A stretch of 64,000 nt of DNA from the sequence record PZ242158.1, one strand, 5' to 3'. The first letter of the stretch is position 1. Every line of letters starts with the position of its first letter. The notes under the pieces are model-generated. The model saw only the letters and a program-made list of their open reading frames with translations. It did no database searches and was not told where the DNA came from. Position numbers and translations under genes: made by a program. This stretch comes from a phage. This document shows positions 23,217 through 26,301 of the stretch, in pieces.

Positions 23217-23612
23217 TTACTGAAACAGTGCGGATAAATTACCTTCTGGTGGGAACTTATCTGCCAAAAACGGTGTTAGCACAGTAGCCTTCTGAAGATC
23301 TGGGGTCCACTCGTTGTTCAGAACATCCCAGTAGTACGCAATGTTGCTGTGTGGGTGCCGCATTACGAACTTTTTCCCTTCGTAGTCATCTGAAACCTCT
23401 ACAGAAGAAATAACAACAGAATCTTCAAGGGTTTCTTCATAGAAAGATCCGCCTTCAAATTTCCAACGAGATGCAAGAGCCCCTGCCTTGAACGCTGCAG
23501 ATAACGGACTGTCGGCAAGAACATACATTTCTTGCACTCTGTCGCTGCGATCTTTGCTTCTTACGTTGTATACAGTATCTGAGCTATACTCAACACGGTA
23601 TAGGCTTACCAT
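23217..23612 (-). CDS. paralog family B protein (HP.S..YW....W.TP motif)
   Basis: Similar to 25419-25817 product. Confidence 0.5.
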   Translation of the reverse strand: MVSLYRVEYSSDTVYNVRSKDRSDRVQEMYVLADSPLSAAFKAGALASRWKFEGGSFYEETLEDSVVISSVEVSDDYEGKKFVMRHPHSNIAYYWDVLNNEWTPDLQKATVLTPFLADKFPPEGNLSALFQ

Positions 23613-23971
23613 TACCGCACCTCCTCAATAACTTCCACATCTGAACCTACCACAAATGCAAAAGGACAGGTTTCATGAAAGACATCCGGATCGCCGCCAA
23701 GCTTGCTAACAATCTCTCCACCACTAATAAACACAAGCTCACCGATATTCATCAGATTGCTGAAATAGTACCCATAATGATTAAAGAATGCAGCAGGGTC
23801 AGGTAGACTAGTAGCCTCAAGCACTACATCAGTTGAGGTTACTTTCTTATCATAACCTCTCGCCTTTTGAGATGCAAGATCTGCAGAATCCTCAGGCGAC
23901 CGGAGATGCACAGGAATTGTTTCACCAATAAAGCGTACTTTCATATTATCACCCAACAACCATAGCTTCAA
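23612..23971 (-). CDS. small protein, paralog family A (alternative start MKVRFIGET at 23944)
   Basis: Contains MKV(K/R)..G...G(E/K)..V.(K/S)GG.. pattern. Confidence 0.45.
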   Translation of the reverse strand: MKLWLLGDNMKVRFIGETIPVHLRSPEDSADLASQKARGYDKKVTSTDVVLEATSLPDPAAFFNHYGYYFSNLMNIGELVFISGGEIVSKLGGDPDVFHETCPFAFVVGSDVEVIEEVR

Positions 23972-24212
23972 AAGGGGTCATGAACGAATAAACGGCATCA
24001 TCATCTGCTTCAGGGAATGCTCCCAAAGACTTCATGTCTGAGCCCTTGACAAATACAAGGTTTTGATCAAAAGCTTCTTGAGGATCAATCCGATACATAT
24101 TTCGTAGAATATCGCCTACCTCCTCATCAAGAGGTGAGTATGCTGTGCACGTTTTTCCGATCAAGCTTTGAGAATCAGGGTATCCACCTGAAGTTTTAAA
24201 ATAAACAATCAT
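23949..24212 (-). CDS. small protein, paralog family A
   Basis: VFVKGSDMKSLGA resembles VLVKGKDLLAAGA. Confidence 0.45.
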   Translation of the reverse strand: MIVYFKTSGGYPDSQSLIGKTCTAYSPLDEEVGDILRNMYRIDPQEAFDQNLVFVKGSDMKSLGAFPEADDDAVYSFMTPFEAMVVG

Positions 24213-24303
24213 ATAGTATCACCTCTGGTAAGAGATTGGGATTCCTTTCCCACAAATAATTACAAACCTTCCTTATCGAGGAAGTATGCTAATCCAAGCA
24301 GGA

Positions 24304-24573
24304 TTATTCCTCTACAATCTCATACACATCCGGAGTTACAATCAACTCTTCTCCGTTACCCGGTGCAACAAACACCACCATGCCTTCAGGTGTGTGCTTT
24401 TTAGCCATCTCGATAACATCTTCTCGCAGAGCTGGCTCCATCAGATCAAAACCTTCACCCAGGGCATCACGAACCACCTTCATATAGTCAACTGGTTGTG
24501 CTTCGACAATCATACCTTCAACCAGTCCACAGTTTTTGTCTGCCAGCTCAGTTTTGAATAATTTAATTTTCAT
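24304..24573 (-). CDS. small acidic protein, paralog family C
   Basis: MKIKLFKTELA.. and ..VYEIVEE. Confidence 0.5.
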   Translation of the reverse strand: MKIKLFKTELADKNCGLVEGMIVEAQPVDYMKVVRDALGEGFDLMEPALREDVIEMAKKHTPEGMVVFVAPGNGEELIVTPDVYEIVEE

Positions 24574-24710
24574 TTAGAGGTCTCCTCAATTATTTGATAT
24601 TAATAGCCGTAACCTAACACATTAACTACAACTGCGATTGCAAACATAATTTCAAAGCATGCAATCTCTACATTTGGGACTAATTTCTTGATCACACCCA
24701 TTGTAGCACC

Positions 24711-25028
24711 TCATTCTCTAAAGTCAATCTTTACTTTGCCTTTCCCCTTACCTTTCTTTCCACCGCATTTAGCCAGTTGACGTGCTGCAACATCTACCAT
24801 ACGGTCAGTTGCCTCGTAAGCATCACTGCCTTTAGCTTTGGCAATAACTTCTTTTCCAGAATTGTCAAAAATGAACGCCATAACTTCCTGGTGATCATTT
24901 TCAACTTTTACACTCACACGTGCATAGTTGGCAGAGGGATGCAAACGCTCCAGCTTAGACATTTTGTGGGAAATGAAAGACACCATACCTTCAGTGATTT
25001 CTACGTTGCCAGTGATTTCAATTTGCAT
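24711..25028 (-). CDS. hpf: ribosome hibernation promoting factor / YfiA (RaiA) family homolog
   Basis: MQIEITGNVEITEGM...KLE...VKVE...G.E..A.A.G.D.Y.A.D...D..ARQL.K closely parallels E. coli HPF (MQLNITGNNVEITEALR..). Confidence 0.75.
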   Translation of the reverse strand: MQIEITGNVEITEGMVSFISHKMSKLERLHPSANYARVSVKVENDHQEVMAFIFDNSGKEVIAKAKGSDAYEATDRMVDVAARQLAKCGGKKGKGKGKVKIDFRE

Positions 25029-25045
25029 AACGTGTTCCTTTTAAA

Positions 25046-25067
25046 GAAGAGGGAACCAAACCCTCTT
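25046..25067 (-). terminator. hairpin terminator-like element (AGAGGG-AACCAAA-CCCTCT)
   Basis: Stem-loop in gap upstream of hpf. Confidence 0.4.
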
Positions 25068-25110
25068 TGAAAACAATGATACTAAATCTGAAGCGTTGTG
25101 TCAACAGTTT

Positions 25111-25418: not shown

Positions 25419-25817
25419 TCAGTTTAGCTTTTCTTCAACAACCCCATAACTTGGGGCAGAGTCAAGAGCTTTCTGGTTTAAAAGTGGCGTAGCAGAATCT
25501 GCAAACGGTGTCCAAGTTTTTGTTCTGGCATTCCAGTAATGCTTCACTCTGGAATCTGGATGCACTATAACAAAAACTTTTTCACTTGTCAACACATTAA
25601 TTTCTTCTACACCCTTGCTGATAATTTCTCCGTCATAGCCCCCAGTCTGGTATCCTTCGTACCAGGTTCTTGCATAGGCATAGCCAGCCTGCCAGCATGC
25701 AGCCTCCTCCGAGGTGGAGACTACGTAGAAGTCTTTCTCAAATTCTGGAATACGCCCTTGCTTTACGCTCCAAGCCCCGCGAATTTTCATTGTAACTTTA
25801 AACAGTTTATTTTTCAC
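25419..25817 (-). CDS. paralog family B protein
   Basis: ..HPDSRVKHYWNARTKTWTP.. similar to 23217-23612 (..HPHSNIAYYWDVLNNEWTP..). Confidence 0.5.
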   Translation of the reverse strand: MKNKLFKVTMKIRGAWSVKQGRIPEFEKDFYVVSTSEEAACWQAGYAYARTWYEGYQTGGYDGEIISKGVEEINVLTSEKVFVIVHPDSRVKHYWNARTKTWTPFADSATPLLNQKALDSAPSYGVVEEKLN

Positions 25818-25829
25818 AACGGTTACCCA

Positions 25830-26084
25830 TCACAGCTCTACAATATCTGCATCTGACCCTACCCCAAAGGCATAGTAGGACTCTTCCCCGAAATAATATT
25901 CAGGTGCACCAGCGGTGATCAGGTCTGATCCCAAGATAAACACCACGTTGTGGCCTACATAACTGTGATGTTGCCGCACAGGATCATCCCACGGCAACCC
26001 TTCAAAGTATACCGCAGGAACGACCTTTCCATTCAGGAAGGATTGTCCCAAGTAGACGTTAGAATCAAGAATTTTAACCTTCAT
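25830..26084 (-). CDS. small protein, paralog family A
   Basis: MKVKILDSNVYLGQ..GSDLITAGAPEYYF. Confidence 0.5.
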   Translation of the reverse strand: MKVKILDSNVYLGQSFLNGKVVPAVYFEGLPWDDPVRQHHSYVGHNVVFILGSDLITAGAPEYYFGEESYYAFGVGSDADIVEL

Positions 26085-26301
26085 GATCGTCCTCCACTAC
26101 CTCTACATCCTCACCTAGGGCAAAGTTATAGGTCCACTGACTGTCAAAGCATTCCTGAGATGCACCAGCGGCAATAAGATCTGCTCCTTTTATTTTTAAA
26201 AGGTCAGGGTAATCTTCGTTAGGGACAGCAGTAAACACTTTTCCTACTAAAGGCTCCTGACCAATATAGAAGCTTGAATCTAAAACTTTAACTTTCATCA
26301 A
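26074..26301 (-). CDS. small protein, paralog family A
   Basis: MMKVKVLDSSFYIGQ..GADLIAAGASQECF. Confidence 0.5.
   Translation of the reverse strand: MMKVKVLDSSFYIGQEPLVGKVFTAVPNEDYPDLLKIKGADLIAAGASQECFDSQWTYNFALGEDVEVVEDDHEG

Follow-up and report, generated by a model that had tools for sequence, protein, structure and literature searches.

The gene at 24711..25028 on the minus strand (ATG start, 105 codons, TGA stop within these coordinates) encodes a genuine phage member of the HPF/RaiA (S30AE) family. It lies in a 64,000-nucleotide stretch of phage DNA (PZ242158.1), which is called the window below. Our preferred reading, to which we give a probability of about 0.6, is that the product is an early-expressed, functional short-HPF-type factor that would bind idle host ribosomes at the canonical site on the 30S subunit, in a salt-labile manner. 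This estimate covers ribosome binding at the canonical site, and our confidence in the physiological role is lower. The HPF homology of the gene and a functional hypothesis were both published in 2019, and the sequence observation itself is already known. The present analysis adds the evidence for selection, a conserved putative promoter, an ortholog in a sister lineage, the pattern of contact residues and the indels in the tail.

The product resembles short HPF proteins in sequence and predicted fold

The 105-residue product begins with MQIEITGNVEITEGMV and ends with ARQLAKCGGKKGKGKGKVKIDFRE. BLASTP aligned its residues 1-87 with E. coli K-12 HPF (b3203) with 38 identities out of 88 (43%; E 5e-18), and the sequence blocks quoted in the original prediction (MQ[IL].ITGN.VEITE, KLE, VKVE and ARQL.K) all align with the E. 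coli protein. Identity to E. coli RaiA was only 25%. The search against the S30AE family that had been called for gave a match to Pfam PF02482 (Ribosomal_S30AE) over profile positions 1-83 of 88, with 48.3 bits against a gathering cutoff of 23.7 (E 1.8e-12). The HPF/YfiA family model TIGR00741 scored 45.9 against a cutoff of 40.9, and PHROG 8990 likewise supports the family assignment. Among all models the NCBIfam equivalog of gammaproteobacterial short HPFs, NF007780, scored best at 55.8 bits, far under its cutoff of 125, and the RaiA/YfiA equivalog NF007654 gave 17.6 bits and did not reach its cutoff of 158. As both equivalog scores fall under their cutoffs, the sequence points to an HPF-like family member of the short-HPF type that is an equivalog of neither E. 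coli HPF nor RaiA.

The top PDB sequence matches were structures of E. coli HPF (2rql, 4v8h and 6h4n; E 5e-12 to 2e-11). We built an AlphaFold2 model, a predicted rather than a solved structure, on an alignment of 25 sequences. Its mean pLDDT was 83.5, with values of about 90 over residues 1-90 and below 50 for residues 91-105. The predicted strands span residues 2-7, 33-43, 46-55 and 60-67, and the predicted helices residues 13-29 and 70-92. When the model was compared with the PDB using Foldseek, HPF, RaiA and pY proteins took all of the top 37 places; the best matches were V. cholerae HPF (4hei_A; rmsd 1.1 Å over 92 columns) and ribosome-bound E. coli HPF (6h4n_x; 1.2 Å). The profile score, the 43% identity and the predicted fold thus agree on the HPF/YfiA homology that had been proposed. 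A Pfam search found no second domain in the protein, and after helix alpha-2 the model has a disordered tail only. Unlike the long HPFs of the Gram-positive and plastid type (about 180 to 190 residues), which carry a C-terminal dimerisation domain past a linker, the 105-residue phage protein has no such domain.

The gene is widespread in the genus Vequintavirus

The window belongs to an rV5-like Vequintavirus. The 4 kb surrounding the gene are 99.9% identical to Escherichia phage EdH4, which agrees with the phage origin assumed at the outset. Nearly all of the records that match this region are from Vequintavirus, and 96 of the 121 are at least 95% identical to it. By tblastn the HPF gene was found in 118 records, against about 121 matching records overall, with an identity of at least 95% in all but one. 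Six phages encode a protein 100% identical to that of the window, namely, the BASEL phages AlexBoehm, RudolfGeigy and WalterGehring, together with PMBT16, bov10K2 and bov22_2. The rV5 protein (ABI79209, 105 aa) is 99% identical, the single difference being G104R. This rV5 "HPF" and its Vequintavirus orthologs represent the same gene, at the same position and with the same neighbors as in the window, and they differ from the window copy by strain-level polymorphism only, mostly in the tail. Mathieu et al. (2020, Nat Commun 11:378) regarded hpf as an auxiliary gene of rV5 phages.

Many records already name the protein, as "sigma 54 modulation factor," "ribosome hibernation promoting factor," "ribosome hibernation factor" or "ribosome-associated translation inhibitor RaiA." The RaiA label in RefSeq (NCBI PGAP) is generic family naming and constitutes no evidence for a RaiA function. 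Three records (MT884008.2, MT884010.2 and OR062528.1) label their HPF ortholog "ATP-dependent protease La type I," an evident error for an S30AE protein of 105 residues. Eighteen "Campylobacter phage" records of the MG0656xx series, with C. jejuni or Campylobacter given as the host, are 96 to 99% identical to E. coli Vequintavirus across the region; one of them that we fetched, C14 (MG065653.1, our locus L013), is flagged UNVERIFIED. Their host labels are probably wrong or the result of contamination.

Purifying selection and ancestry

In five pairwise comparisons of canonical rV5-like copies, dN/dS ranged from 0.04 to 0.11 at dS values of 0.15 to 0.63, and the gene is under purifying selection. 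These values are confined to the canonical rV5-like copies, dS being saturated between the window and the sister lineage described below. IMG/VR contributed two loci, too few to improve the selection analysis.

A word-indexed protein search, which gave five near-identical clusters, also yielded a 64%-identical ortholog of 103 residues, P0004. The contigs that carry it, of 125 to 137 kb, run collinear with at least 8 kb of the window; P0004 occupies the syntenic position, and the neighboring proteins are 29 to 89% identical to those of the window. From this ortholog, placed syntenically in a collinear sister lineage, it follows that the ancestor shared by both phage lineages already had the gene and that its place has not changed since. 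Among rV5-like Vequintavirus the gene has been passed on vertically, and its position within the small-gene region is fixed. An exhaustive phmmer search of 1.84 billion cluster representatives returned 22 matches, among which no cellular relative was more than 45% identical. By sequence, the phage HPF is a long, divergent branch of the gammaproteobacterial short HPFs. One candidate, P0006 (1,160 aa), was rejected as an HPF, its E value of 2.9e-9 being the sum of eight weak repeat matches to residues 35-81; it is a highly repetitive protein of the secreted type, with eight near-identical repeats of about 110 residues.

S30AE proteins occur in other phages, also large myoviruses, among them the members of PHROG 8990, AFC21633 of Cronobacter phage GAP32 and HPFs of metagenomic viruses (PMC6375957). 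These proteins belong to the same family, but they diverge too far from the phage HPF for a tblastn match at E values of up to 1e-5, and the two are placed in separate PHROGs (12469 for the phage HPF, 8990 for the others). According to the published phylogeny, they are probably independent acquisitions (PMC6375957).

A putative promoter and the gene neighborhood

In E. coli, hpf lies in the rpoN operon, whereas the phage gene has its own putative promoter of the sigma-70 type. A consensus scan identified TTGACA-17 nt-TATCAT at 25076..25104 on the minus strand. It matches the consensus at 11 of 12 positions and occupies the gap that separates the stop codon of the upstream gene from the HPF start. 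The block AAACTGTTGACACA, which includes the -35 hexamer, is invariant in nine aligned loci, that of the sister lineage among them. Promoter-like sites are not enriched region-wide (10 found by the same scan versus 7.5 expected), and the case for promoter function, which we infer from the sequence, therefore rests on the quality, position and conservation of the site. A Shine-Dalgarno-like AAGGA is read at 25036..25040 (minus strand), 7 nt before the ATG, and a ribosome_binding_site is annotated at the equivalent place in phage Murica.

Between the putative -10 element and the Shine-Dalgarno-like sequence, the minus strand can form a hairpin, AAGAGGG-TTTGGTT-CCCTCTT (25047..25067). Its stem is weakened without compensation in Murica, C14 and A6-1, and it is absent from the sister lineage. 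The hairpin is probably incidental or a weak terminator of the upstream gene. A regulatory RNA structure in the 5' leader was considered and rejected, as the 5' region folds no better than shuffled sequences (z = -0.26).

Downstream, a hydrophobic open reading frame (ORF) of 33 codons (MGVIKKLVPNVEIACFEIMFAIAVVVNVLGYGY; 24600..24701, minus strand) starts 9 nt past the stop codon of HPF and is equipped with a Shine-Dalgarno sequence of its own (GAGGTG). Among the rV5-like records that annotate this ORF, one calls it a "putative membrane protein." The sister lineage lacks a counterpart, with only 83 nt separating HPF from the next gene. Two genes downstream of HPF lies an ORF of 89 codons (24304..24573, minus strand), beyond which a terminator-like hairpin is found at 24284..24268. 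A single transcript of the three genes is possible. Several GenBank records, among them APCEc02, nom, inoa and A6-1, call the 89-codon ORF a "sigma 54 modulation factor." The ORF was rejected as a second HPF paralog, having no Pfam match and an hhalign probability of 0.2% against the HPF alignment, and the label is an annotation error propagated from APCEc02. PADLOC defence models gave no match for the HPF gene or its two neighbors, and on these grounds we rejected an association with defence or anti-defence.

The HPF gene is situated within arrays of paralogous, unannotated small genes, none of which has a Pfam match. The ORFs of 131 and 132 residues (23217..23612 and 25419..25817, both on the minus strand) are 28% identical (E 2e-11) and have in common the motif HP.S...YW....WTP. 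Two adjacent ORFs of 84 and 75 residues are 47% identical and share with further neighbors a start of the form MKVK..DS..Y.GQ..GK and an end of the form G.D.E.VE. The small ORFs of these arrays other than the 131- and 132-residue pair lie at 25830..26084, 26074..26301, 23949..24212 and 23612..23971, all on the minus strand. Elsewhere in the window, a tRNA cluster on the plus strand (62085..62897) comprises seven calls, including Arg-tct, Tyr-gta, Ser-tga, Thr-tgt, Met-cat and Pro-tgg. One of the seven, at 62554..62652, is unusual in its length of 99 nt and its four-base anticodon (atcc), and it may represent a pseudo-tRNA or a tRNA with an intron.

Ribosome-contact residues are partly kept

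We compared the phage proteins with the contact residues reported in a 2025 cryo-EM preprint on Gram-negative HPF and YfiA (10.1101/2025.10.07.680626) and with the basic patches defined by mutagenesis of S. aureus HPF (Basu and Yap 2016; PMC4889938). The alpha-1 patch is intact in the window protein (K22, K25 and R28) and the same in the sister lineage. In the alpha-2 stripe, R83 and K87 are kept in both phage lineages, and K80 and K89 are replaced. K22, K25, R28, R83 and K87 are the positions best conserved between the two phage lineages and cellular HPFs. E60 and, in the alpha-2 stripe, K91 are kept in the window protein only, P0004 having V60 and S91.

Relative to E. coli short HPF (YhbH, b3203; 2rql, 4v8h and 6h4n), four reported contacts are thus substituted in the window protein: K80V, K89G, T53F and H55F. 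The sister lineage has T, S and R at the first three of these positions and likewise F at the fourth. Among 20 cellular relatives, K is found at the K80 position in 16 and at the K89 position in 15, T at the T53 position in 9 and H at the H55 position in 7. According to the preprint, K80 and K89 of Gram-negative HPFs contact rRNA and are strictly conserved, and T53 and H55 touch m2G966 and uS9 (10.1101/2025.10.07.680626). In S. aureus HPF, the K84A/R87A substitutions, equivalent to K80/R83, caused a loss of dimerisation while ribosome binding was kept, and binding was abolished only in a quadruple mutant of the patches of both helices (PMC4889938). Since a quadruple mutant was needed there, the loss of K80 alone should not abolish binding. 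Taken together, the kept and lost contacts and the S. aureus mutants suggest that the phage protein probably still binds the ribosome, with an altered interface.

A variable polybasic tail

The Lys/Gly-rich tail noted in the original prediction corresponds to residues 89-105 (GGKKGKGKGKVKIDFRE; 24714..24764, minus strand). It contains 7 K/R residues for a net charge of +4.8 and is predicted to be disordered (pLDDT below 50 for residues 91-105). The tail charge lifts the pI of the whole protein to 9.0, versus 6.5 for E. coli HPF. Cellular HPFs, including that of E. coli, end in KHKxKLKxH; the phage protein has its 17-residue Gly/Lys tail instead. E. coli RaiA (YfiA or protein Y, b2597; 4v8i and 1n3g) shares the fold and the family, and like RaiA the phage protein extends past the HPF core. 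However, the RaiA tail, which occludes the RMF site, is acidic at its end, whereas the disordered phage tail is unrelated in sequence and basic.

The purine-rich stretch that codes for the tail is an indel hot spot among isolates. The Murica protein stops at residue 99, the tail is frameshifted in APCEc02 and P0003, and that of an IMG/VR contig (L010) is one residue shorter. In the sister lineage P0004, the tail is different yet basic and its last residues are similar, K-W-D-Y versus K-I-D-F in the window protein. At the other end of the gene, six N-terminal residues (GNVEIT) are missing from the protein of phage inoa owing to a 6-codon deletion. Direct repeats of GAAATCACTG, 18 nt apart, are present there (25000..25028, minus strand), and the loss is consistent with a deletion between the two. 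The HPF gene therefore contains two mutation hot spots, 24714..24764 and 25000..25028 (both minus strand), as seen in the variant loci L011, L012 and L015. Since isolates with truncated, frameshifted or different tails are viable, the exact tail is dispensable for laboratory growth. Intact protein is likewise dispensable in laboratory propagation, because viable isolates carry either a truncated or frameshifted tail or the six-residue N-terminal deletion.

Published observations on the rV5 protein

Mizuno et al. (2019, Nat Commun 10:752; PMC6375957) listed rV5 ABI79209 among virus-encoded ribosomal proteins, grouped it with gammaproteobacterial HPFs and suggested that it might compete with the host HPF, preventing ribosome dimerisation. 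When the rV5 protein was expressed in E. coli from pBAD24, its peptides were detected in the crude extract, purified 70S and 100S ribosomes contained none, and the amount of 100S was unchanged (PMC6375957). A 70S versus 100S profile after expression of the gene is the experiment that the original prediction had suggested. Conversion of RMF-induced 90S dimers to 100S particles is a trait of gammaproteobacterial short HPFs; no promotion of 100S was seen with the phage protein (PMC6375957). In those experiments the cells were harvested at an OD600 of 1, when exponential growth was ending, and the ribosomes were pelleted through a sucrose cushion with 500 mM NH4Cl before the gradient (PMC6375957). 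To explain the missing ribosome binding, the authors themselves raised salt stripping, the growth phase or a genuine loss of binding (PMC6375957).

High-salt washing is a standard way to remove ribosome-associated factors, as stated explicitly for 1 M KOAc (PMC4889938). In work from the Wada laboratory, RMF, HPF and RaiA were detected in crude ribosomes, and 1 M ammonium acetate gave factor-free ribosomes. Given the 500 mM NH4Cl wash and the harvest at the end of exponential phase, both of them causes that the authors brought up, the published negative result is not decisive. We found no functional follow-up of rV5 HPF after 2019 in the searchable literature.

Discussion

We propose that unmodified host RNA polymerase would transcribe the gene from its own sigma-70-type promoter, for which reason expression would probably come early in infection. 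In host ribosomes that are not translating, the two helices would dock in the tRNA/mRNA channel of the 30S subunit, as those of cellular HPF and RaiA do. With K80 and K89 gone and a flexible polylysine tail present in addition, binding would probably be more electrostatic and salt labile than that of E. coli HPF, and this would account for the failure to recover the protein on ribosomes washed with 500 mM NH4Cl. The most likely benefit would be that idle ribosomes are kept in reserve as particles whose decoding centre and 16S 3' end are protected against RNases, for example RNase R and YbeY. E. coli hibernation factors are reported to protect against these two enzymes (PMC7913689). Such protection would matter after the shut-off of host gene expression or in starved gut hosts, by preserving translation capacity for the phage. 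We counted against this explanation the divergent sequence, the failed equivalog cutoffs, the four lost contacts, the viability of isolates with altered tails or the N-terminal deletion, and the published lack of binding. The original prediction holds as to HPF homology and phage context; its proposal that the protein modulates ribosome dimerisation or hibernation during infection we keep as a hypothesis.

The reading favored by Mizuno et al. (PMC6375957) is that the protein counteracts hibernation. By holding the HPF/RaiA site, or with a tail that reaches the RMF site as that of RaiA does, it would block the formation of 100S particles driven by RMF and HPF and then leave easily, so that the ribosomes of a stationary-phase host stay quickly reusable 70S for phage mRNAs. 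RaiA does inhibit 100S formation, and its longer tail runs toward the RMF site, which is not clearly the case for that of short HPF (10.1101/2025.10.07.680626). The phage tail is disordered and 10 residues longer than that of E. coli HPF, but it has no significant similarity to the RaiA tail and its end has the opposite charge; moreover, it is truncated or frameshifted in viable isolates, and its sequence is not conserved in the sister lineage. The loss of K80 and K89 and the absence from salt-washed ribosomes would fit weak, reversible binding, and S. aureus HPF K84A/R87A offers an example of a protein that bound ribosomes without dimerising them (PMC4889938). Nevertheless, a protein that sits in the decoding channel is itself a block to translation, and expression of the rV5 protein brought no decrease in 100S, though these particles were already scarce at that growth phase (PMC6375957). 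We thus regard such a competitor as unlikely, if credible. A related and equally tentative idea is that of a diverged weak binder that gave up K80 and K89 and gained a flexible polylysine tail in exchange, acting as an anti-hibernation or ribosome-guarding factor.

Alternatively, ribosome binding may have been lost altogether, the HPF fold and basic tail now serving another RNA, a host protein, or as a decoy or inhibitor in defence or stress. The protein was indeed not recovered on ribosomes (PMC6375957), both phage lineages have substitutions at the four reported contact positions, the branch is long and divergent without cellular relatives above 45% identity, and PHROG 12469 is labelled "unknown function." A second protein partner of an HPF also has a precedent in the S. 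aureus HPF-YwlG pair (PMC9522360). However, the conservation of K22, K25, R28, R83 and K87 is what ribosome binding predicts, PADLOC gave no defence match, and the neighbors, all unannotated small proteins, suggest no other partner. We consider this repurposing distinctly improbable. That the gene is a functionless passenger, captured from a host by chance and drifting, is very hard to maintain. The indel variants of some isolates and the weak phenotypes of E. coli hpf or yfiA single deletions (PMC4889938) could be cited for it, but it is contradicted by the dN/dS of 0.04 to 0.11. A gene nearly universal in the genus, one that has kept 64% identity in a sister lineage whose neighboring proteins are 29 to 89% identical and that has a dedicated, conserved putative promoter, also argues against drift.

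To our knowledge, phage genes whose products touch the ribosome are rare. How lytic phages deal with dormant hosts, whose ribosomes are hibernating, is a practical question for phage therapy. The residue picture, with its kept alpha-1 patch, lost K80 and K89 and variable polybasic tail, may guide the design of a decisive experiment, as may the observation that the sole negative binding test included a 500 mM NH4Cl wash. On our preferred reading, that of a short-HPF-type factor at the canonical site, the gain for the phage would lie in the ribosomes preserved for its own translation. If the idea of a diverged weak binder were true instead, the protein would displace host HPF, RaiA or RMF, keeping 70S ribosomes reusable, or it may shield the 16S 3' end from host RNases or from defences that target translation, and in this way it would let the phage replicate in starved or stationary gut E. 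coli.
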